64,000 nucleotides of DNA from a virus (taxonomy: Duplodnaviria > Caudoviricetes), in IMG/VR virus record IMGVR_UViG_3300005080_000001, positions 32,001 through 96,000 of that record. The stretch is one strand, 5' to 3'. The position numbers and the translations under genes are program-made. The notes under the pieces are model-generated. The model was not told the origin of the DNA and searched no databases. It was given only the letters and a program-made list of their open reading frames with translations. Shown piece by piece: positions 4,540 through 55,802 of this stretch (its first letter is position 1; each line of letters begins with the position of its first letter).

Positions 4540-4848
4540 ATGGAAAAAACTTTTCAGCAAGAACTTGAGGAACTAATTGCAAAGCATGCTATTCGCCAAG
4601 AGGACACAGGCTCTGGCTACTTAGTTGAATTAAAAAATAATGAGTGTATCCAAATTGATTTAATCAATGAATCTAACGAGTTAGAAAGATTCGAGGAAGA
4701 AGGCGAAGAGAAAGACGAATGGGTTTATGTCTGTGCCGACTGCCTAGAGTCACACGATGAAGAAGTGGAGAAATGCTTTGGATGCGGTAGTGATTCAATA
4801 TCTAGCATGACAAAAAGCGATGAACAGTTGTTCAAGTACGGTAAATAA
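4540..4848 (+). CDS. Acidic Zn-ribbon-like hypothetical protein
   Basis: CxxC...CxxC; RBS present. Confidence 0.65.
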   Translation: MEKTFQQELEELIAKHAIRQEDTGSGYLVELKNNECIQIDLINESNELERFEEEGEEKDEWVYVCADCLESHDEEVEKCFGCGSDSISSMTKSDEQLFKYGK

Positions 4849-5977: not shown

Positions 5978-6136
5978 ATGTTTGGTTTCCAATTAGGGCA
6001 AAAGGTTGACACAAAGCGAGGAACTGGAAGAGTTGCAGGCTTCGACCCAAAGAGTGGGTACTGCATTGCGGTTGTATTAGATTCTGACCAAGGAACAATT
6101 TGGTGGTGCAGAAGAGAAGGTTTATTAGTTAGATAG
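5978..6136 (+). CDS. Small hypothetical protein (52 aa), not in ORF track
   Basis: MFGFQLGQKVDTKRGTGRVAGFDPK...; follows repeat B. Confidence 0.5.
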   Translation: MFGFQLGQKVDTKRGTGRVAGFDPKSGYCIAVVLDSDQGTIWWCRREGLLVR

Positions 6137-6573
6137 TACATAATTAAATGAATAAAATCTGGATTTCATTAAGAGGGGGAAAATAAAAATGCCGTATCGT
6201 CATTTCAAAAAAAATATGGACACCATTAGTTATGTTTCACATCTATTTCTTCGAGGATTTAGCCACTGGGGATATATACATGAAAACGAAGAATACTCAT
6301 AGAAGATTAATTTGGAAGAGAAAAAATTTTTAACATTTTAGTTCAATACTATTACAGTATTGAAGAAAGGGAAAATCAAATGAATTTAATAATAGAAGAA
6401 GAAATGGTAAAGAAAATTCTCTTGGTCAGAGGTCATAAACCTAATGACAGAAACGTTAAAAAGATAATGAAGGAAATAAATCTTTGGTCAAATGACCTAG
6501 TAGAGAATTTGATAGATATTGCAGTAACATCAGCAAATAGAAATAAAAATATCTAATAGATGGAGAGACAATC

Positions 6574-6972
6574 ATGAAATCTACAAATAAAAAACAAAAG
6601 CTAAAGCTTCGTCCATGGGTGAAAGTTGTAATGTTATTCGTAGTAGGCGTAGCTATCACAACAAAAATTTTCTCAGTAATGAATACATCAGCATCAACAG
6701 AAGAACCGCAAAATAAAATTTATCATGGTGTCGTTCGGCTCGATAAGGATGGTAAGTATGAATTGTCTATGCTAGACGGTATGTACAAAAAAGAAATTAA
6801 GGTAGATAAGAAAAAAGATTATGAACTGGGTGGAATTGTTAGTGTTGTGACTGATGGTGATAAAGTAGTAAATGATTACTCATGCAAAGGCAAAGAACTT
6901 TACGGAGTTGTTGGTAAATATAAATTTGAGATAGACTCTGTGAGAAGAGATGTAAAAGCACAGGTTGAATAA
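6574..6972 (+). CDS. Membrane-anchored hypothetical protein
   Basis: Basic N-terminus and one TM; GGAGAG RBS. Confidence 0.7.
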   Translation: MKSTNKKQKLKLRPWVKVVMLFVVGVAITTKIFSVMNTSASTEEPQNKIYHGVVRLDKDGKYELSMLDGMYKKEIKVDKKKDYELGGIVSVVTDGDKVVNDYSCKGKELYGVVGKYKFEIDSVRRDVKAQVE

Positions 6973-6982
6973 TAATCACACC

Positions 6983-7020
6983 ATAACTACCCTTATGTGT
7001 TTAGGGGTAGTTATATTTTT
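6983..7020 (+). terminator. Intrinsic terminator
   Basis: ATAACTACCC...GGGTAGTTAT stem followed by a T tract. Confidence 0.7.
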
Positions 7021-7192
7021 ATTGTATTACTAAATTGTCAAAAATTACTTGAGAAATATTCCTAATTTATATTCATTTTAATTTTACAGATTTTTATTGT
7101 AAGCGTATAATTAACCTAGTTGAATGATTTGATAGACTTGTTAAATTATGTTAATTAATAATTATCTTTGATAGAGAGTTAGGTGTGATAAC

Positions 7193-7948
7193 TTGAAGTT
7201 TGGACAAAGATATAAAGGAAGGGGAGAAGTGTCTCCATTAGCTGATTATGTGCAATTTGACATATCTGGACTTAGTGCAATAGAGATAGTTCAGAATTAT
7301 TTTATACTAGACATTAATAATAAGCCTATTCTACTTTTAGGAGATTACTCAGACGAAGAAAAGGGATCTTCCGAGGATGATATGCTCAAGGCAGATAGAA
7401 TATACGAAATTAAAGATGCAATCAGTAGTCTTCGAGCATTTGGGGCAGAGATTATGGGTATAACCATATATCCATTCTCTAGAGAAGGGCTATATTCCCT
7501 TAGTAGGACTATAAAGTTTGATGATTTTATATTTAAACTTAAAGAAATATATGATATTCCAGTGTTGGTTAGGAACTCAAATAAAAAAGATTTGTTTTTA
7601 TCTACCTCAGAAGAGATTATTAGGTTTAGTCAAAAAAATAAAATTGCAATATCTCCTATGAGCCTTTTTGAAGCGTTAGATTATGATTTAGATAAGTATC
7701 TTGATACAGTTTTAAATATAAATCTAGAAAATATTCAAGAGATTCAAATCAGAACTACTAGTTGTTGCATGAATGAATGTGAGAGTAATTATGATAATAA
7801 TCAAGAGCATACTTTATTTAGGTTAAAGGATTTTTATAAGAAATTGAAGATAGTTCCTTGGTTTACGTTAATGCTAATGGGTTCTGGAGGTAGCGGAAAA
7901 TCATTTGAACTTAGCGTAAAAAAGATTACTGACCGTTTCGAAGATTAA
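7193..7948 (+). CDS. Hypothetical protein, possibly degenerate DUF692/TIM-barrel-like
   Basis: YDLDKYLDTVLNINLENIQEIQI resembles the DUF692 C-terminal motif; weak. Confidence 0.45.
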   Translation: MKFGQRYKGRGEVSPLADYVQFDISGLSAIEIVQNYFILDINNKPILLLGDYSDEEKGSSEDDMLKADRIYEIKDAISSLRAFGAEIMGITIYPFSREGLYSLSRTIKFDDFIFKLKEIYDIPVLVRNSNKKDLFLSTSEEIIRFSQKNKIAISPMSLFEALDYDLDKYLDTVLNINLENIQEIQIRTTSCCMNECESNYDNNQEHTLFRLKDFYKKLKIVPWFTLMLMGSGGSGKSFELSVKKITDRFED

Positions 7949-9340: not shown

Positions 9341-9460
9341 TACAATTTAATTATGTTTAATTATAGCTGATTATCGGTTGTTGACACACGGCACATAGTC
9401 GGCTATAATTAGGCATAATTACTGGAATACTATTGAAGTAGAAATATAGGAGGAAATGAA

Positions 9461-9793
9461 ATGACTAGGCTAGAAGAGTTTGGTAAACACATCAAAGAAC
9501 TAAGGGAATTAAACGGATTTAAGAGCCAGAGAAGTCTCGCTGACACTCTTGGAGTTTCAAATGCTACGATCGCTAGAATCGAAAGAGGAGAAGTAGAGGC
9601 TAGTGTTGAGACAATCAAAAAGATGGCAGAAGTGTTTCATATGGATTATATGGATTTAGTGGCAAAGCAGGATATTGTTCTTAAGTCTGGAAGTGAATTA
9701 TTAAATGAGAAAATCCAAAAGTTAAGCAAGGCTCAAGTTGAGATAGTTAATAGCATGGTAGATGAGTTCCTTAGATTAAGCAAGAAGATATAG
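9461..9793 (+). CDS. Xre-family HTH transcriptional regulator
   Basis: IKELRE..SQRSLADTLGVSNATIARIERGE HTH; promoter TTGACA-17-TATAAT at 9381-9409. Confidence 0.9.
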   Translation: MTRLEEFGKHIKELRELNGFKSQRSLADTLGVSNATIARIERGEVEASVETIKKMAEVFHMDYMDLVAKQDIVLKSGSELLNEKIQKLSKAQVEIVNSMVDEFLRLSKKI

Positions 9794-9805: not shown

Positions 9806-10210
9806 ATGGGGATTGAAGTTGTAGAGGAAAACTTATTATTTATGATTGATATGAAAAATAAGGAATACAAGAAGCTACAAGTATTGGACATCGATGACAA
9901 TATGGATATCGAAATTGTCGAGGAGGCAGTTAAGCCTTTTGTAAATAAGTATGAAGAGCAATTAAAGCAGGGCATGTGGTTATTTACTGCAGACAAATTA
10001 TCTAATGGGGAATACGATGCTACATACAAGATATCGTATGCAGAATGGTTACTTGCATCAGAGAACTTCAAAGAGCATCCGTACTCTTACGATATTACCG
10101 ATGCTAATGAAAAAGTTGTGTTTAATCACGTTGTAAATGGAAATAGCGTGGAGTCTTATGGAATGCTTGTTTACGAAGCAATTAACCCAAAGGAAATGGA
10201 TTTACCATAA
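9806..10210 (+). CDS. Hypothetical protein
   Basis: AGGAGG RBS; ORF. Confidence 0.7.
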   Translation: MGIEVVEENLLFMIDMKNKEYKKLQVLDIDDNMDIEIVEEAVKPFVNKYEEQLKQGMWLFTADKLSNGEYDATYKISYAEWLLASENFKEHPYSYDITDANEKVVFNHVVNGNSVESYGMLVYEAINPKEMDLP

Positions 10211-10658: not shown

Positions 10659-11324
10659 ATGACAGGAATTAAAGATAAGTTTAATCTAACGCTAGAACAA
10701 AATATCTTTCTGGCAAAGAAGACATTAGTTGAGAACGTCTATAATAGTGCAAGACTTGAGGGTGTTAACGTAACATTCCCAGAGACAAAGGTAATTATGG
10801 ATGGCATGGTTGTATCTGGTATCAGTGTTGATGATTTACAGATTATCTTAAATCTAAGAAATGCTTGGAAGCATGTACTAAATACTATTAACGAAGATAT
10901 GAGCCTTGAGTTCGCATGCAAGGTTAATGGCTTTGTATCATACAATGAGAGCCTTGACTGGGGTAAGTTGAGATATGGGAATGTTGGGATCAGTGGAGTA
11001 AGCTACAAGCCAGAGATTCCAAAAGAAGAGAATGTGCTTAAGGATATTAATGAGATACTTTCTTCTGACGATTCAATTACTCACAAAGCAATTAAATACA
11101 TGTTGTACGGAATGAGAAGTCAATTGTTCTGGGACGGTAATAAGAGAACAAGTACATTATGTGCAAACAAGATTCTAATCAAGCATGGTAAAGGATTAAT
11201 AAGCATACCAGAAGCTAAGTTGCCAGAGTTCCATGAACGACTTTCAGCATTCTATGAGACAAACGATTACAGCAAAATTGATATGTTTATATACAATGAA
11301 TGCTTATATGGAATTGAATTTTAA
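10659..11324 (+). CDS. Fic/Doc family protein (non-canonical motif)
   Basis: SARLEG N-terminal motif; QLFWDGNKRTS versus HPFxDGNGRxxR. Confidence 0.85.
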   Translation: MTGIKDKFNLTLEQNIFLAKKTLVENVYNSARLEGVNVTFPETKVIMDGMVVSGISVDDLQIILNLRNAWKHVLNTINEDMSLEFACKVNGFVSYNESLDWGKLRYGNVGISGVSYKPEIPKEENVLKDINEILSSDDSITHKAIKYMLYGMRSQLFWDGNKRTSTLCANKILIKHGKGLISIPEAKLPEFHERLSAFYETNDYSKIDMFIYNECLYGIEF

Positions 11325-14702: not shown

Positions 14703-14849
14703 ATCCTAATTTCAAGAGGTTCAAAAGTTTGTTAAACAAAAGTATTGACAATTATATTGTATTTAACTATACTTAGAGTATAAATAATTGTTGATTCGAA
14801 AGCTTATGTTTAAGCAAAAGTTTTGCATTTATTTTAAGGAGGCTACAAA

Positions 14850-15089
14850 TTGAATATCGAGATCAGTAAGAAATGGCAGTTAGACATTGTAGATGGCGGT
14901 CACGGTTCGTTAACTGAAAGCCTCCGTACTGGAGGAAAGCAGATATATGAGGTGTTCGTTGGATATGACAATTATGTCTATGTATCAGAGGCAAACAAAA
15001 GCAACATTGGTCACGGGATTATGCCTAAGACAGTCCGCAGTAAAATTGGTTCAGCATTTAAAAAATATCGTAAAAATAGAGGGAGTTAA
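14850..15089 (+). CDS. Hypothetical protein
   Basis: AAGGAGG RBS; preceded by paired family A motifs. Confidence 0.65.
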   Translation: MNIEISKKWQLDIVDGGHGSLTESLRTGGKQIYEVFVGYDNYVYVSEANKSNIGHGIMPKTVRSKIGSAFKKYRKNRGS

Positions 15090-15511: not shown

Positions 15512-15727
15512 AAACGTTGATATAACAATATTTATGAAGGAGTTGACAAAAATGAGAAAGACAAGAAAAAAATAACAATTTATTAAAAAAAAGTGTTGCA
15601 ATTAACCATTTTATGTATTAATATTAGAGGCAGATAGGGAATACGAGTTGTCCAAAAAAGAATGACATACATAAGTAATTATAGAAAATATCATAGCAAA
15701 CTTATAATTCACAGGGGGAGATTTATA

Positions 15728-17044
15728 ATGACGACTAATATTAATTTTGAAAAGGTTGAAGAGGTATCTGCTAAACTTGATTCCACATTAAATGGGATCA
15801 GCCATATATCAGTATTAAAAGATAGGTTCGAAAATGCTTTGAATGAAGTAATTAGTTCTGATAAAGTTAAAGAAATTCTAGATAGTAAATCAATTAAAAA
15901 CTTAAATCCAGATGAGACAATATCTTTCTTTAGAGTTATATTTAATCAAATCAAAGACGAATCATTTAATCCAACTAATTTTATAATAGAAGAAAAACCT
16001 AAAACTATAAAGAAACCTAAAAATGAATCAGAAGCTGAAAAGAATAGATTAAAGAAACTAAAAGCAATTAATAACTCAAATGTATTTCATCCTAAATTTA
16101 AAGACAAATTCTTAGCTGAACATCGCAATGCTGATGGTAATCCATATGCTGATGAGACAAAAAGGGTAGCGGTTATCCTTTTTGGTAAAGTAGGCGTTAT
16201 TGAAAAACATTATAATAAAGATATCTATGACTTTAATGCAGACCAATTCGAAGAGGTTTTAGTATCTCTTAAGGCAAGTACAATTAGAAGCCTTCAAAAT
16301 TCTATCTCTACTTTAGAACAATATATAGACTTTGCAATTGCAAATGATAAAACTAAAAAAGGCAATGTAGCTACTCAATATAATAATAGGAAAGAAATAT
16401 CACAATTCTTAAATAAACAAGCAGAAGAGAATATGTTCTTCTCAAAACATGATATTAATACACTTGCTGAATATGCTGAAAATGCTCAAGATGGAGTAAT
16501 ACTTAACTTAATTTTTGATGGAATTAGCCATAAGAATAAATTTATTGAATTAATCAACCTTAAAATTGATGATGTAGACTTTGATAACATGGTTATTAAT
16601 GTACCAGAATTAACAGATACAGTAACTGGAGAGATTTTCCCTCCAAGACAAGTTCCTATGTCTGAGTCTACAGCTAGAACAATTAGACAGGCAATGAACT
16701 TTGAAGAGAAGTATGTGAGTCTTAATGGTAACTCTAGCCGTAGATATGCGATTGCTCAAAGTGAATATATCTTAAGAGGTCTTCGTAAGAACTACCAGAT
16801 TAAATGGGAAAATGTTAACCAAAGAATACTTCGTATCGCAAATATAAATGATGAAGAGTTTTTAAATGCAACTAATATTGCATATAGTGGTCAAGTTCAT
16901 TATGCTAAAGAGCAAATGCAAGCAGGTTACAGCATGGATGAAGCAATTAGATATGTTATTAATCGTTTTAATATGAGTGACAATACATCAACTTATTTCT
17001 ACATTAAGCATCGCCTAGAAACTGCAAATAAAGTGCTTTCTTAA
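15728..17044 (+). CDS. MrpR/YopR-like phage repressor (catalytically degenerate tyrosine-recombinase fold)
   Basis: KDIYDFN...STIRSL..SISTLEQYIDFAI and NAQDGVILNLIFDGI..ELINLK match SPbeta YopR/MrpR as recalled; catalytic R and HxxR absent; an Xre gene follows, as with yopR-yopS. Confidence 0.75.
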   Translation: MTTNINFEKVEEVSAKLDSTLNGISHISVLKDRFENALNEVISSDKVKEILDSKSIKNLNPDETISFFRVIFNQIKDESFNPTNFIIEEKPKTIKKPKNESEAEKNRLKKLKAINNSNVFHPKFKDKFLAEHRNADGNPYADETKRVAVILFGKVGVIEKHYNKDIYDFNADQFEEVLVSLKASTIRSLQNSISTLEQYIDFAIANDKTKKGNVATQYNNRKEISQFLNKQAEENMFFSKHDINTLAEYAENAQDGVILNLIFDGISHKNKFIELINLKIDDVDFDNMVINVPELTDTVTGEIFPPRQVPMSESTARTIRQAMNFEEKYVSLNGNSSRRYAIAQSEYILRGLRKNYQIKWENVNQRILRIANINDEEFLNATNIAYSGQVHYAKEQMQAGYSMDEAIRYVINRFNMSDNTSTYFYIKHRLETANKVLS

Positions 17045-17338
17045 TATAATATTGGATTTCTATAATCATCCCTACACGGTTACATCCTAGCCTGTAGGGA
17101 TTACTACTTTATATGGTTTATTTTACAATACAAGGATGTAACACCATTAATTACAATGGAAATAATTACATTAAAAATATGACGGATATTCTATTGAATA
17201 TTGTTTCTTACAATAGTATAGTGAAAAAGTGGTCAACATCCAGTTTATTTTTTCTCAATGAGTCATCTCGGAGATGAATTATTCATCTGACAGATGGGCA
17301 TACTGCAAATGCGCTAGAGCAAGAATTGAGTTAAGGAT

Positions 17339-17713
17339 GTGTTATTGTTGAAGGTTGAAATTGGTGAGTATCTCAGATTGAAGAGATTAGAAAAGAGACG
17401 AACCCTTGGAGATATAGCTTCCAAAGTCGGTGTTTCAGCTAATTACATCTCAGAAATCGAAAAGGGGATGAAGAACAACCCTTCCGATGAAATCATCGTA
17501 AAATTAGCCGAAATTTTCAATATCAATGAAGATGACTTGTTCCAAGGTTTTGATAGAACACCGTTGTCTGTAAGAAATGAAATTAAGGCACATCCTAGTT
17601 TAGCCAAGGCACTGTCTGAATTAAACCATGACGATACCATTGACCAAAAGCAGAAAGAGGAATTTTATAATAAACTGGTCTACTGGTATAAGAAAATAAC
17701 AGAAGACAGCTAG
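17339..17713 (+). CDS. Xre-family HTH regulator (YopS-like position)
   Basis: TLGDIASKVGVSANYISEIEKG..NPSD. Confidence 0.9.
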   Translation: MLLLKVEIGEYLRLKRLEKRRTLGDIASKVGVSANYISEIEKGMKNNPSDEIIVKLAEIFNINEDDLFQGFDRTPLSVRNEIKAHPSLAKALSELNHDDTIDQKQKEEFYNKLVYWYKKITEDS

Positions 17714-17733
17714 GAAGAGGTGTATTGTAAATA

Positions 17734-18126
17734 ATGTCTGTTCTAGAAATTATAGAAGCTAGGCACTTCGCAATCGCAGTAGCGTACTTCCTTTTGGGAG
17801 GACTTGGATTCGCTTATTTTTTAACATGGTTACTTAGAAATAAGATTAAAATAGATCATGAACTAAATAGTGGCGATACTATTCGTTTAACCGATAAACT
17901 CGGTAGAATATGGATTATTTGCAATCCTTCAAATTTAGTACAGCTTACAAACGCTATAATATTGTCATTCAGCAAAAACGGTAGTGGAAAGGTCATCGAC
18001 AAGCAGACCAAGAGGAGAACAAGAGTCATAGCGATGCTTATTTTCTGGTCGTTGGCATTGTTACTAACATTGGCACTGTGGTTTACATTGGATGCAATAG
18101 AGTATGATGACCCTAACATACCGTGA
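17734..18126 (+). CDS. Two-TM membrane protein
   Basis: Hydrophobic helices at N- and C-termini. Confidence 0.65.
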   Translation: MSVLEIIEARHFAIAVAYFLLGGLGFAYFLTWLLRNKIKIDHELNSGDTIRLTDKLGRIWIICNPSNLVQLTNAIILSFSKNGSGKVIDKQTKRRTRVIAMLIFWSLALLLTLALWFTLDAIEYDDPNIP

Positions 18127-18156
18127 TTAGCTTTACATATAAATAGCACTACACTT

Positions 18157-18203
18157 CCTTTATAAATGGCTTGTTCGACATGCAACAAGCCATTTATAAA
18201 GGA
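18157..18203. terminator. Long hairpin, probable terminator
   Basis: CCTTTATAAATGGCTTGTT...AACAAGCCATTTTATAAAGG. Confidence 0.55.
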
Positions 18204-18267
18204 GTCTAAAGCAAAAGTTTTAAAATACGTAATTTTTCGTAACATTAATGTAATAAATAAAAGAAAA

Positions 18268-18339
18268 TGCAAAACTTTTGTTTGACATTTAGGCGGATTT
18301 AGAAGTATAATAAGATACCGAAACAAGAACAGATGTTCT
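18268..18339 (+). promoter_or_regulatory. Consensus sigmaA promoter with LexA (Cheo) box and inverted family A motif
   Basis: TTGACA 18282-87, TATAAT 18306-11; AGAACAGATGTTCT 18326-39; TGCAAAACTTTTGTTT at 18268-83 is the reverse complement of motif A. Confidence 0.75.
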
Positions 18340-18404
18340 GTTTCTATCGAATACATATATAAAAATAAGAGGTTTGTAAAACATTGAAGAGGGGAAAATT
18401 AAAT

Positions 18405-18893
18405 ATGAAAAACTTCACAATTAGCAACGTTAAAGGCATGGAAGGCTTCGAGGCATTAACACAGGAGAAAGTAAGTGTTGAAAATTTATTGGTTCAAAAG
18501 TGCAATGAGCAACAAAGCAAGATCTCTGGTTTTATTGAAACCAGACGTGAAGTATTGCATACAGAGTTCGATAGACAAGCATGTCGTGAGTATCTTGAAT
18601 TAGTACCCTCATATGTTCAAGGAAATGAGTTTTTCCGAAAGATGATGCGTGTCATTATGCAGAAGATTTCCCGTGATTTCGTCCGTGAAGGATGGGTAGA
18701 TAGCTTGGTGGAAAATGCAAAAATGAAGCTAGAGATATTTGGCGGTGACATCACGAAGACGATTGACCATTATGAAGCGTACTACACATGCGGAAAGCTT
18801 TGCCCAGTAGCGCAAACATGGCGAGAAAGATTAGAAGAATTAGAGAAAGGTATGGTAATTTACAATGAACCAAATCCAAGCAAAGCAGTATGA
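18405..18893 (+). CDS. Hypothetical protein, first gene after the LexA-box promoter
   Basis: GAGGGG RBS; ORF. Confidence 0.75.
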   Translation: MKNFTISNVKGMEGFEALTQEKVSVENLLVQKCNEQQSKISGFIETRREVLHTEFDRQACREYLELVPSYVQGNEFFRKMMRVIMQKISRDFVREGWVDSLVENAKMKLEIFGGDITKTIDHYEAYYTCGKLCPVAQTWRERLEELEKGMVIYNEPNPSKAV

Positions 18894-19176
18894 TCTCGAT
18901 GCATTAGAAGAACTAGATGATATGATTGAAAATGCAAAACTAGAATTGCAAAAATCTATCTCTCTAGTAATTCTCAATGTAAATGTTGAAGAAGCATTTG
19001 CAGGCACATTGTCTGCGATGAGTGAAATTAAAGCAATTGCACAGAGAATTAAGTCTAGTGATGTGATGACTATAGCATCTGAAAAGATTGCTTTATACTC
19101 AATTCACTTCGATGAGACAATCAAACAGGTACAAGTTGCAAACATTAAACTAAAACAATTTGGAGGCATTCTATGA
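18865..19176 (+). CDS. Hypothetical helical protein
   Basis: Overlaps both neighbours (translational coupling). Confidence 0.65.
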   Translation: MNQIQAKQYDLDALEELDDMIENAKLELQKSISLVILNVNVEEAFAGTLSAMSEIKAIAQRIKSSDVMTIASEKIALYSIHFDETIKQVQVANIKLKQFGGIL

Positions 19177-20495
19177 AAAACATCGCTGAAATATTATTGC
19201 AAGTAAACTCAACTTCTAGTAAGAAAGAGAAAGAGCATATTATTGGAACGTATAAAGACAACCCTCTGTTCAAGGAGGTGTTGAATCAAATTTATAACCC
19301 GTTTTTAAAAACGAATATCGCCAAGAAGAAACTAGCAAAGAAAATTAAAACGATACCTTCTGAGATATTTGGAAGTGACAAAGAGTACATCTATTACCTT
19401 CAAAACAAATGTACTGGTAAGGATATTGATATCGTGAATATCCAGTATTTCATCAGCCAACAGCCAGAAGAAATAAGATGGTTGTATGAGGCGATGGCAA
19501 TTAAAACACTTAAATTCGGATTCACTGAATCTACAATTAATAAAGCGTTTGGATATGATTTCATTCCTACATTCGATGTGATGCTTGCTGAAAAATACGT
19601 GGAAACAAAACGTGACAGCAAAGGCGTTAAGAAGGTGAAGAAGAACTTCCTTCGATACGTTGGATATAATGTTATCGCAACGCCAAAGCTTGATGGTAAT
19701 CGATGCGTTATCTTTACCAATGACAATGGTGAGATTGAATTACTATCCAGAAGCGGACAAGTTTTAGAAGGGTATACAGAGATCGTAGAAGCATTTAAAG
19801 CCTTTCCTAAAGGTATTGTATACGATGGCGAGTTACTTGCTATAAATAATGAGGGATTAAATTCTAAAGAATTGTTCCAGAAGACACAAAAGATAGTTCG
19901 TACCAAGGGAGAAAAGACTGGTGTTATGTTCCATGCCTTTGACATGTTGCCAATTGAGGACTTTAAAAAAGGCGGTTGCTCGACTCCGTGTCTATTACGT
20001 AAAAATGCGCTAGAAAGTATAGTTGAAAAGTATGGCAACGAACTTGTAGCATATGTTAAACCGTTATACATTGGAATGTTTGATGAAGAGATTATTCAGA
20101 AGCTTTCAGAAGATGCATGTGAGCAAGAAGAAGAAGGTATCATGGTTCAGCTTGCAGATGCTCCTTATCAATTAAAACGAACATTCGATATTCTTAAGGT
20201 AAAAGTATTTGAGTCAGCAGACTTACGAGTAATTGACGTATACGAAGGCGAAGGACAGAACGTTGGAAAGCTTGGCGGTGTAATCGTTGACTACAGAGGG
20301 TATACAGTAAGAGTTGGCGGTGGATATACGAAAGAAGAGCGAGAAGATATCTGGTCTAATCCAAAAAAGGTAATGGATAAAATCGTTGAAGTCCAATATT
20401 TCAAGGAATCAGAAGACCAGTACGGTAATCTTTCACTACGTTTCCCAGTATTTAAAACAATTCGAGAAGACAAAACAGAACCGAGTTATTATTAA
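19173..20495 (+). CDS. ligB: ATP-dependent DNA ligase
   Basis: KLDGNR adenylation motif, YDGEL, EGIMV, LKVK, SLRFPVF. Confidence 0.95.
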   Translation: MKNIAEILLQVNSTSSKKEKEHIIGTYKDNPLFKEVLNQIYNPFLKTNIAKKKLAKKIKTIPSEIFGSDKEYIYYLQNKCTGKDIDIVNIQYFISQQPEEIRWLYEAMAIKTLKFGFTESTINKAFGYDFIPTFDVMLAEKYVETKRDSKGVKKVKKNFLRYVGYNVIATPKLDGNRCVIFTNDNGEIELLSRSGQVLEGYTEIVEAFKAFPKGIVYDGELLAINNEGLNSKELFQKTQKIVRTKGEKTGVMFHAFDMLPIEDFKKGGCSTPCLLRKNALESIVEKYGNELVAYVKPLYIGMFDEEIIQKLSEDACEQEEEGIMVQLADAPYQLKRTFDILKVKVFESADLRVIDVYEGEGQNVGKLGGVIVDYRGYTVRVGGGYTKEEREDIWSNPKKVMDKIVEVQYFKESEDQYGNLSLRFPVFKTIREDKTEPSYY

Positions 20496-20588
20496 TCTCG
20501 TTTGTAACACTTTTGTAAAACAAAAGTATTGCAAATTATGATATAATATTCAATGTAGCGCTATTGGCTACAGAAGGGAATTGATATT

Positions 20589-21340
20589 ATGAAAACAAAT
20601 TTATTTAAGAGAGGAAGTGTCATCGGTACAGCACTACGTCCAGTAATCACTATCGCACTTGCAGGTTCATTAGCTTATGGATCGCATTTATACGTAGTAC
20701 AAAGTCACGCACTGGACAAGGCAAAAGATAAAATTGTTCAACATGAGTCATCGTTAAAACATCAGAAAAGTATAATTACAGGTCTTGAAAAAGACAAAGC
20801 TGATTTAGAATCCAAGAACGATAGCTTGCTCAAGGACAATGCCACGCTGAACCAACAGTTGAAGTCTGATGCAGATAATAAGGCACAGCTTGAACAGAAG
20901 TTAAAGCAGACAGAGTTAGAGTTGCAAGAACTAAAAAAGTAACAAGCCCTACAGCTTCAAAAGAGCCTGTTAAAACAAGTAGCGCTCCTAAACAGCCTAC
21001 TGATAACACAGGTAGCAGTAGTGGCGGTTACTCCAATTGGAGTAAAATCACGGTTAGAGCAACGGCATACAGTACATACGAAAATGGTGATGAACTGGGA
21101 GGTCGTCAATGGGGTAATAAAACCGCAACAGGAACTGTGGTACACTGGGGAACGATTGCTGTAGACAGGAATGTCATTCCGCTTGGTTCTAAGGTGTATA
21201 TACCAAAATTCAATATGGTATTTACTGCAGAGGATACTGGCTCGGCTATTAATGGTAATCGTATCGATATATTCTTTGATTCTGTTGCCCAATGTGACCA
21301 ATTTGGTGTGCAACAACTCGAAGTATATGTACAGCCTTAA
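20589..21340 (+). CDS. Membrane-anchored coiled-coil plus 3D-domain murein hydrolase, joined by a -1 frameshift at 20933-20939
   Basis: The 0-frame ends CTA AAA AAG TAA; the -1 frame is open from 20939 to 21340 with RATAYS..TATG..IAVDRNVIPLGSKV..AEDTGSAINGNRIDIF. Confidence 0.8.
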
Positions 21341-22105: not shown

Positions 22106-22303
22106 ATGATATTTTTCAAAAAGAAAAAGAAGAAAAAGCTTCGGAAACTCGACCTTAATGAAAAGACTTGGGTGATGATCGGTGAGATTTACTCAAGATT
22201 ACTTGTCAATAGAGAAGTTTCCATGGAAAACGAGGAAATTATTGAAATGGCAGTAACGCTCATGCACAGCAGAGTGGTCAAGAAGGGTATGCTTGACCGA
22301 TAA
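22106..22303 (+). CDS. Small hypothetical protein
   Basis: AGGAG RBS. Confidence 0.55.
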   Translation: MIFFKKKKKKKLRKLDLNEKTWVMIGEIYSRLLVNREVSMENEEIIEMAVTLMHSRVVKKGMLDR

Positions 22304-55688: not shown

Positions 55689-55802
55689 CATTAAACAAAA
55701 GTATTGACATTAATCTAGTCAATTGCTACAATGATAAAGTATTAAGTTAGGAATTTACTAAAAAATATACTTAAACAAAAGTATTGCATAGGAGGAAATG
55801 AA

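Follow-up and report, generated by a model that had tools for sequence, protein, structure and literature searches.

LexA-controlled antirepressors that bind uncleavable phage repressors are established for coliphage 186 (Tum) and for the Salmonella Gifsy phages and SPC32H (Ant). An SOS-controlled antirepressor of an integrase-like repressor is already known too, from SPbeta and phi3T, through a preprint of November 2025 (bioRxiv 10.1101/2025.11.27.690993), the consulted portion of which is followed here. SroF (also named MrpR or YopR) is described there as binding a 26-bp box as a DNA-encircling monomer and as being inactivated by the small antirepressor Sar (phi3T_99; YopT of SPbeta, 72 amino acids (aa), PDB 2DLB), a DNA mimic forming an intertwined beta-sheet dimer with four beta strands and three helices. 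The sar gene is positioned a single open reading frame (ORF) downstream from sroF; it is repressed by LexA via an SOS box, according to reporter assays and mutation of the box, and SOS boxes were reported near sar-like genes in all genomes analysed in that work, where antirepressors are called small, diverse and hard to find. The repeated element of MrpR in SPbeta, SPBRE, gave peaks at 10 promoter regions (PMC10516654, consulted in part). The present analysis concerns a 64,000-nucleotide stretch (the window), representing bases 32001-96000 of the 132,518-bp virus record IMGVR_UViG_3300005080_000001, which is rated complete and has 36.4% G+C. By sequence this is an SPbeta-like temperate phage of a low-G+C Bacillales host, and the subject is the first operon past its lysogeny module, whose leading gene, orfA, occupies the place that sar has in SPbeta and phi3T.

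We regard it as an even call that orfA encodes an antirepressor of the MrpR-like repressor that is gated by LexA and non-homologous to Sar. The features on which this reading is built are as follows.

15662 to 17044, plus strand: MrpR/SroF-family integrase-like repressor, 460 aa as listed, with PF22822 and Phage_integrase domains
18268 to 18283, minus strand: reversed motif A, TGCAAAACTTTTGTTT (variant AAACAAAAGTTTTGCA on the minus strand), no mismatches to the query, overlapping the -35 hexamer by 2 nt
18282 to 18311, plus strand: sigma-A type consensus promoter, TTGACA-18-TATAAT, 12/12 match
18326 to 18339, no strand assigned: LexA (SOS/Cheo) box AGAACAGATGTTCT, with a perfect GAAC-N4-GTTC core
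18405 to 18893, plus strand: orfA, 162 aa, orphan, all-helical, candidate antirepressor (11-sequence alignment; complex prediction)
18865 to 19176, plus strand: orfB, 103 aa, acidic three-helix bundle with a predicted local distance difference test score (pLDDT) of 87.4
19173 to 20495, plus strand: ATP-dependent DNA ligase, the last gene of the operon (PF01068, E 4.3e-19; PF14743; phrog_114, E 1.4e-96)

The promoter consists of the hexamers TTGACA (18282-18287) and TATAAT (18306-18311) separated by an 18-nt spacer. It is the sole 12/12 match within 17000-20700 and one of only three perfect TTGACA-N16-18-TATAAT sites in the 132,518 bp. The LexA box starts 14 nt after the -10 hexamer, at roughly +8 to +21 if transcription is assumed to start 7 nt past the -10. 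A first-pass annotation, made from the letters alone, had placed both the promoter and the box (AGAAC-AGAT-GTTCT) here, with a reversed motif A abutting the -35, two ORFs coupled to the ligase downstream and an MrpR-like protein without an S24 peptidase domain. All of these observations were borne out: the coordinates are correct, the box is core-perfect for the Bacillus LexA motif and lies just after the promoter, orfA and orfB overlap by 29 nt, orfB and the ligase gene overlap in ATGA, orfB being translationally coupled to both, and the Pfam scan of the repressor returned PF22822 and Phage_integrase, with no S24 peptidase domain found.

The box differs from the B. subtilis 14-mer CGAACATATGTTCG at three positions, none in the core, the consensus being one that may not be that of the host. 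The LexA sites of SPbeta yolC/yolD and yorB carry 3-4 mismatches and have measured binding constants (PMC8270828 Table 1, the paper being consulted in part), and by its letters the window box appears to be as good as these sites. The sequence GAAC-N4-GTTC occurs twice in the window against 0.74 expected, two or more being found in 17 of 100 shuffles, and four times in the whole genome; the count alone is not significant, and the significance of the box therefore lies in its placement and conservation. The second copy in the window, at 4822, looks fortuitous; it falls within the 3' end of a coding frame, and the next -35 follows after ∼60 nt. An exact 17-mer around the box matched 10 viral loci, none of which was related by BLASTN. 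No RNA data set was listed as containing the stretch, and the one RNA run of the same species label yielded 0 reads on it, which makes it no test of expression. No lexA gene was found in the virus record, and we infer from the arrangement that LexA controls the orfA promoter.

The box recurs in place in other lineages. A core-perfect LexA box precedes orfA in three of the seven lineages compared, with the core kept and the N4 and flanks differing among them. The arrangements are given below, together with those of an SPbeta-species phage and of an isolated phage with a short repressor.

L017, L018 and L019 (identical over the stretch; repressor 57% identical to that of the window): TGCAAAACTTTTGTTTGACA, 17 nt, TAAGAT, 14 nt, AGAACGTTTGTTCC, orfA homologue
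L023 (repressor with 44% identity): motif-A-type promoter in forward orientation, a TAATAT hexamer with GGAACACACGTTCC 18 nt past it, and next orfA
L022: a single site, CGAACGTATGTACT, mismatched at one core position
SPbeta-species phage Goe12, yopT: TATAAT, 13 nt, AGAACGCACGTTCC
Psychrobacillus phage Perkons (short repressor, no orfA), L025 at 5636: CGAACATATGTTCA, 7 nt after TATAAT, 185 nt after the YopR-like gene and before the 57-aa ORF67

The distance from -10 to box is thus 14 nt in the window, 14 nt in L017 and 13 nt at SPbeta yopT. The 20-mer TGCAAAACTTTTGTTTGACA, which comprises the reversed motif A and the -35, has identical letters in the window and in the distant lineage L017-L019; the first-pass annotation had proposed that this reversed site may regulate the promoter differently. 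In Perkons, an isolated phage, the locus is a candidate for a switch of the Sar type.

Gene order around orfA was conserved. The series YopP-like gene, 138-aa gene, MrpR-like gene, a variable segment, orfA, orfB and ligase was present in all five distinct viral loci (L017, L020, L022, L023 and L024), in which orfA is 32-51% and orfB 28-36% identical to the window, and the order MrpR-like, orfA, orfB, ligase was present in 6/6 related lineages that have both orfA and orfB. In one further contig, L001, orfA, orfB and the ligase gene are present and the contig ends before the promoter. The orfA gene lies two ORFs downstream of the repressor in the window and directly downstream of it in L003, L017, L020 and L023; a divergent arrangement with a helix-turn-helix (HTH) gene is seen in L022 and L024, as for yopT and yopS in SPbeta. 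By this synteny, including the yopS/yopT-like divergent arrangement, orfA is the positional counterpart of sar.

The repressor itself belongs by sequence to the MrpR/SroF family, having a core-binding domain and a recombinase-like catalytic domain homologous to solved structures. Its Pfam match is to PF22822 (MrpR_N_CB, E 4.4e-15); PF22822 and PF22823 were found on 101/101 of its homologues, several of which are titled 'phage lytic cycle repressor MrpR family', and the closest named homologue is from Viridibacillus arvi (60% identity). Sequence matches in the PDB were YopR/MrpR (8bj6/8bjv/8a0a, E 2.5e-13) and 9rd5/9rgl (E 3.7e-9). The 9rd5/9rgl chain carries KFLVHR at 235-240, which fits the K233/F234/H237/R238 helix described for phi3T SroF in the part of the source consulted, and on that ground the chain is taken as SroF of phi3T. 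The window repressor has in addition a clade-specific N-terminal extension of ∼100-140 aa. The listed ORF probably begins 22 codons early (15662-15727), with the true start near residue 23; relatives of 407-438 aa align from about residue 20-23 (MTTNINFEK...).

The proteins OrfA and OrfB are, by sequence and predicted structure, conserved orphans and not Sar homologues. Neither had a Pfam or PHROG match, a significant match in the PDB sequence search (best E for orfA, orfB and a neighbouring 130-aa protein 0.38-0.69), a Foldseek match to the PDB at E <= 0.001 (best E 0.16 and 0.94), or, in the ESM Atlas, a usable feature match or a structure row at a query template-modelling score >= 0.5. The entries 2DLB and 9rgl were absent among the Foldseek matches listed for either, and BLASTP against Goe12 YopT gave no match. 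A profile of the orfA family finds 36 clusters among 1.84 billion representatives, with lengths of 137-182 aa apart from two clusters, and Pfam on 22 of the 36 representatives gave scattered sub-threshold matches only. No match to orfA or orfB was present in 50,697 phage records, 54 of which have an MrpR-like gene. Single-protein scans of viral contigs returned nothing for orfB or the repressor and, for orfA, one locus where the contig ends before the promoter; the scan of genome contigs returned solely a 21-residue chance match in an Acidobacteriota metagenome-assembled genome. Among named phages the only DNA relative was a 148-nt ligase match to PBC2. Wherever it was observed, orfA stood beside a long-form (407-460 aa) repressor. 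No orfA-like protein is described in the literature consulted on SroF and antirepressors, on MrpR and SPbeta, and on SPbeta with LexA, arbitrium and SOS, which took in the consulted portion of the preprint, its Table S5 (Sar homologues and SOS boxes across SPbeta-like phages) excepted.

A three-chain complex of orfA, orfB and the full repressor was predicted, with an own alignment for each chain and the repressor as the scored partner. The interaction prediction score from aligned errors (ipSAE) was 0.80, 0.74 and 0.63 (median 0.74), with a partner pLDDT of at least 79 and at least 40% of contacts agreeing between runs. The best of three controls, two with the repressor swapped and one with only orfA swapped and orfB kept, gave 0.00. 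The mark applied to such scores is reached by 116/157 solved complexes and 2/215 mismatched pairs, counts that hold only roughly for a job with own alignments and three chains. As orfA has no relative in the PDB and no comparable complex of it has been solved, the score cannot be a reproduction of the known SroF-Sar structure. The first-pass annotation had proposed an antirepressor at 18405-18893 and/or 18865-19176 and had suggested a structure co-prediction with the MrpR-like protein. The outcome of that prediction favours orfA, in silico only (0.74 against 0.00 for the best control), and leaves orfB unsupported, with a score of 0.00 when orfA was replaced.

The predicted interface is formed on orfA by residues 1-2, 8-16, 36-44, 66-83, 92-97, 133-143 and 160-162, and on the repressor by 41-52 and 95-99 of the N-terminal extension and by 261-274, 343-357, 394-398 and 457-459 of the catalytic domain. 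In the model it is thus orfA, and not orfB, that sits on the repressor's catalytic domain and N-terminal extension; contacts are listed for orfA only and none for orfB, which is no evidence against orfB binding. The DNA-reading elements of phi3T SroF map onto the repressor at ∼378-392 (alpha13), near 358-362 (beta4 loops) and near 449-453 (alpha18), by a pairwise HMMER alignment to 9rd5 as opposed to a structural superposition. On this mapping the repressor patches 355-357, 394-398 and 457-459 would flank the DNA-binding face.

Motif A, AAACAAAAGTATTGCA on the plus strand, includes the -35 hexamer and may be the operator of the MrpR-like repressor. It is strongly over-represented: 42 matches with <=3 mismatches occur in the window, 2.68 being expected, and 0/100 shuffles reached 42. 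Genome-wide, many copies supply the -35 of a TTGCAA-17-TATAAT-like promoter, and in many others the last position is a few bases ahead of a ribosome-binding site. Of the 42, 40 run with the genes; the exceptions are the copy at 18268-18283, which is presumed to be an operator of the repressor as well, and a weak match at 10108 that has three mismatches and looks like chance. The earlier statement that 18268-18283 is the only reversed copy is consequently correct within the window and fails in the genome, where a twin lies at 22164-22183 at the promoter of a helicase gene. The form TGCAAAACTTTTG(G/T)TTGACA, a reversed motif joined to TTGACA, occurs only twice in the genome, at window 18268-18287 and at this twin. 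The twin (genome 22164-22201; L014 10164-10201; TGCAAAACTTTTGGTTGACA) is outside the window, just 5' of a UvrD-like helicase gene, and has a second reversed copy within the spacer.

Upstream of the reversed copy is a further conserved element.

18206 to 18257, plus strand: conserved non-coding element with a degenerate forward motif A, GTAA repeats and GTAACATTAATGT

This element is 83% identical to L003 over 54 nt, with flanking coding DNA at 67-72%, and TAAAGCAAAAGTTTTA is invariant across the window, L017 and L003. Its degenerate forward copy, AAGCAAAAGTTTTAAA (18209-18224), forms an inverted repeat with the reversed copy at 18268-18283, and the element may add a second binding site. The RNA hairpin between the two inverted copies is weak (minimum free energy (MFE) -14.1 kcal/mol, z -2.19). 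A divergent promoter from the reversed motif was considered and dropped, the best -10 being ATTAAT in the window and TTCAAA in L017.

Taken together, these data would fit the following scheme. Lysogeny would be held by the MrpR/SroF-family repressor encoded at 15662-17044, which should not be cleavable through RecA, and the first operon past the lysogeny module, orfA-orfB-ligase, would be transcribed from the consensus sigma-A promoter. In the lysogen, LexA on AGAACAGATGTTCT, just downstream of the assumed start, would block this very strong promoter, and the repressor, if motif A is its operator, would sit on the reversed copy abutting the -35. DNA damage would remove LexA, and residual firing would then yield OrfA, whose predicted binding surface takes in the repressor's catalytic domain and its clade-specific N-terminal extension, beside the DNA-reading elements. 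The repressor would leave its motif A operators, freeing this promoter and the other motif A promoters and starting the lytic programme; that binding by orfA causes derepression is the presumptive step. In addition to the LexA lock, double-negative feedback would link repressor and antirepressor in a loop.

In several respects the locus resembles Sar-SroF. The repressor is of the same integrase-like, uncleavable MrpR/SroF type, orfA adjoins the repressor module, a LexA box stands at its own promoter as at SPbeta yopT, and orfA is predicted to sit on the repressor catalytic domain near the DNA-reading elements. The resemblance extends to MrpR (YopR) of SPbeta, by family membership and by a repeated element at many promoters. 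Unlike SPBRE, however, motif A is present in 67 copies at <=2 mismatches and often occurs again ∼77 bp downstream, just before the ribosome-binding site. Sar is acidic and ranges from 72 to ∼107 aa, whereas OrfA has 162 aa and is all-helical, OrfB is a three-helix bundle, and orfA has neither a sequence nor a fold match to YopT or the Sar entry. Unlike SroF, the repressor carries an additional N-terminal extension, which contributes to the predicted interface; and unlike sar, orfA is in an operon with orfB and a DNA ligase gene and its promoter also carries a putative repressor-type operator. In comparison with Tum and Ant, the proposal is alike in that host LexA would control a small phage gene whose product binds and inactivates an uncleavable repressor; it differs in that the repressor has a monomeric recombinase fold in place of HTH dimers, and the antirepressor sequences are unrelated.

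The antirepressor reading is supported by the yopT-like architecture, the conservation of the box in lineages with 57% and 44% identical repressors, the synteny, the complex score, the Perkons box and the occurrence of orfA only by long-form repressors. Several observations weigh against it. OrfA is not Sar-like, being a 162-aa all-helical protein with an isoelectric point (pI) of 5.8 and a monomer model of low confidence (pLDDT 60.7). The complex score is a measure of model confidence, and 7/44 blindly chosen neighbour pairs passed when the prediction tool was tested by those who run it. If the repressor binds tightly at the reversed motif, LexA cleavage alone could not fire the promoter, and the LexA motif is assumed to be of the Bacillus type and may not be that of the host. 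In L020, L024 and L003, no LexA-like site (<=1 core mismatch) was found between the repressor gene and orfA, and unlike sar, orfA thus has no box before it in 3/7 lineages. With these three and the one-core-mismatch site of L022, SOS control of orfA is not universal; judged by sequence, LexA boxes recur immediately behind the mrpR module without being universal there. L020 and the similar contig L021, the latter checked for core-perfect sites only, instead have two tandem boxes before an unrelated 81-aa gene (L020 10624-10956, L021 10613-10700; AGAACAAATGTTCT and CGAACAAGCGTTCG), directly after a forward motif A. The 81-aa gene is a basic orphan situated after a deoxynucleoside monophosphate (dNMP) kinase gene, with no homologue in the genome of the window, and its locus may be where the L020/L021 lineage receives the SOS signal. 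The proposal of the first-pass annotation that a LexA-gated antirepressor is encoded here is partly supported: the match of promoter and box to yopT, the gene position and the predicted orfA-repressor complex speak for it, the missing Sar fold and the lineages with no box against it.

A DNA ligase gene closes the operon, as would befit a simple operon for SOS repair or early replication. It is possible, although we consider it doubtful, that LexA controls the promoter of an SOS-induced early or repair operon in which orfA, orfB and the ligase have no derepression role, induction being brought about by another factor. The ligase encoded third is a genuine ATP-dependent enzyme whose gene is translationally coupled to orfB, the block orfA-orfB-ligase is kept as a unit in every relative, and the LexA-controlled yolD-uvrX of SPbeta offers a parallel. 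Several SPbeta LexA boxes are untied to induction in the part of the literature consulted (PMC8270828), a second good box, CGAACATACGTTCT, is present at genome 20124 in the replication region, and the helicase gene has the same reversed-motif promoter. What speaks for a role in derepression is the predicted complex, in which orfA lies on the repressor with a score of 0.74 against 0.00 for controls, together with a position and promoter architecture that parallel sar; and PBC2 (two accessions), the sole record with DNA similarity to the ligase, has no orfA or orfB 5' of its ligase gene.

It is very unlikely that the LexA-like palindrome is no working operator, being a chance match or a leader-RNA hairpin at a promoter governed by the motif A-binding repressor alone. 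GAAC-N4-GTTC is no more frequent in the window than chance allows, the leader folds at a longer palindrome, GAAACA-box-GTTTC, in which the box is nested, and three lineages are without a box. However, the core recurs in place, with N4 changed, across three lineages, their repressors being 44-57% identical, and the spacing from -10 to box equals that of L017 and is within 1 nt of that at the LexA-controlled SPbeta yopT promoter. That orfB is itself the antirepressor, a small acidic DNA mimic like Sar with orfA a helper or unrelated, is most improbable: members of its family are of a suitable size (86-107 aa, within or near the Sar range), acidic in 10/10 cases (pI 4.35-4.81) and well modelled, but the fold is a three-helix bundle and not the intertwined beta-sheet dimer of Sar, it did not match 2DLB or 9rgl, and the complex interface is listed on orfA only.

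On the reading of orfA as an antirepressor, a wider proposal can be put forward tentatively, and we think it rather unlikely to hold in full: orfA would found a second, structurally unrelated class of MrpR/SroF antirepressor, a 160-aa helical clamp on the catalytic domain and the N-terminal extension that only long-form repressors have; the double lock of LexA and reversed operator would form a bistable toggle; and the helicase twin would mark an immediate-early promoter class that is read first on induction. DNA-damage sensing of the SPbeta type was explained only in late 2025, via Sar (bioRxiv 10.1101/2025.11.27.690993, the portion consulted). Systems of this kind are on record for SPbeta and phi3T, and what would be new here is a non-homologous protein in the role. 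The locus suggests that an unrelated protein fills the sar switch position in the long-repressor phage clade. If true, this would be a non-homologous replacement at a conserved regulatory node, a second structural way to pry a DNA-encircling recombinase-fold repressor off its operator, and a natural promoter under both LexA and the phage repressor; it would also provide a simple search rule, namely to take the first gene that follows the mrpR module and has a LexA box ahead of it.

Between the repressor gene and the orfA promoter, the window has a cassette of two genes and a hairpin.

17339 to 17713, plus strand: cassette gene 1, Xre-type HTH protein, 124 aa (HTH_3, E 6.9e-13)
17734 to 18126, plus strand: cassette gene 2, 130-aa protein with hydrophobic N- and C-terminal segments, as read from the translation
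18156 to 18203, no strand assigned: hairpin with a 20-bp stem at the end of the upstream operon, MFE -30.9 kcal/mol on the plus strand and -36.2 on the minus strand

The 130-aa protein had no match in Pfam or PHROGs, no significant match in the PDB sequence search and no sequence similarity to YopT, and it is not Sar-like by sequence; its homologues in L022 and L024 are longer (156-159 aa). In those two loci the cassette is on the opposite strand, divergent from orfA (6030-6895 and 6391-7269, respectively), and it is missing altogether in L003, L017 and L023. The window cassette (17339-18126) is inverted relative to L022 and L024, being on the plus strand and closed by the hairpin. The hairpin probably terminates transcription in both directions; it lacks a classic T-run and went uncalled in the consensus terminator scan. 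The stretch recurs almost without change in some metagenomes and in numerous assemblies that share one coded species label. Indels in the hairpin of a variant contig are confined to the loop (18176-18183), and two sets of variant contigs had no listed change in the promoter or the box, copies that are too close to carry much weight.

On the 5' side of the repressor gene are a YopP-like recombinase-fold gene and then the 138-aa gene. Between these is a basic 79-aa ORF (14850-15089), for which no BLASTP match at E <= 0.01 was found in five related loci, and a palindromic variant of motif A, GCAAAAGTTTTGC (14812-14827), lies just 5' of it. Genes for another Xre-type HTH protein (9461-9793) and for a Fic/DOC-domain protein (10659-11324) are found upstream of the lysogeny module, with a perfect consensus promoter at 9381. 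The search for AimR covered six ORFs between 7193 and 12381, by Pfam scan.

Across the 132.5-kb genome the 67 copies of motif A at <=2 mismatches comprise 43 on the plus and 24 on the minus strand, and their direction tracks the gene blocks. They are often paired, 73-86 bp apart, the first copy forming the -35 and the second lying just 5' of the ribosome-binding site, as at 55693/55773, 58093/58170 and 60677/60750. In view of the strict sense orientation, the second copy would also fit a role at the RNA level. Variants of the motif are present in all related loci, though the repressors there are only 36-57% identical to that of the window.

Outside the window, genome 19580-20575 (L014 7580-8575) is a 1-kb non-coding region between divergent genes, with a tandem duplication and repeated hairpins, AGTGTCTGAAATGAGACACTTTTTT. 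The box at 20124 noted above, the best LexA box of the genome, lies in this region 9 nt before a TTGACT-17-TATATT promoter, which is itself ∼400 nt upstream of a RepA_N replication-initiator gene.

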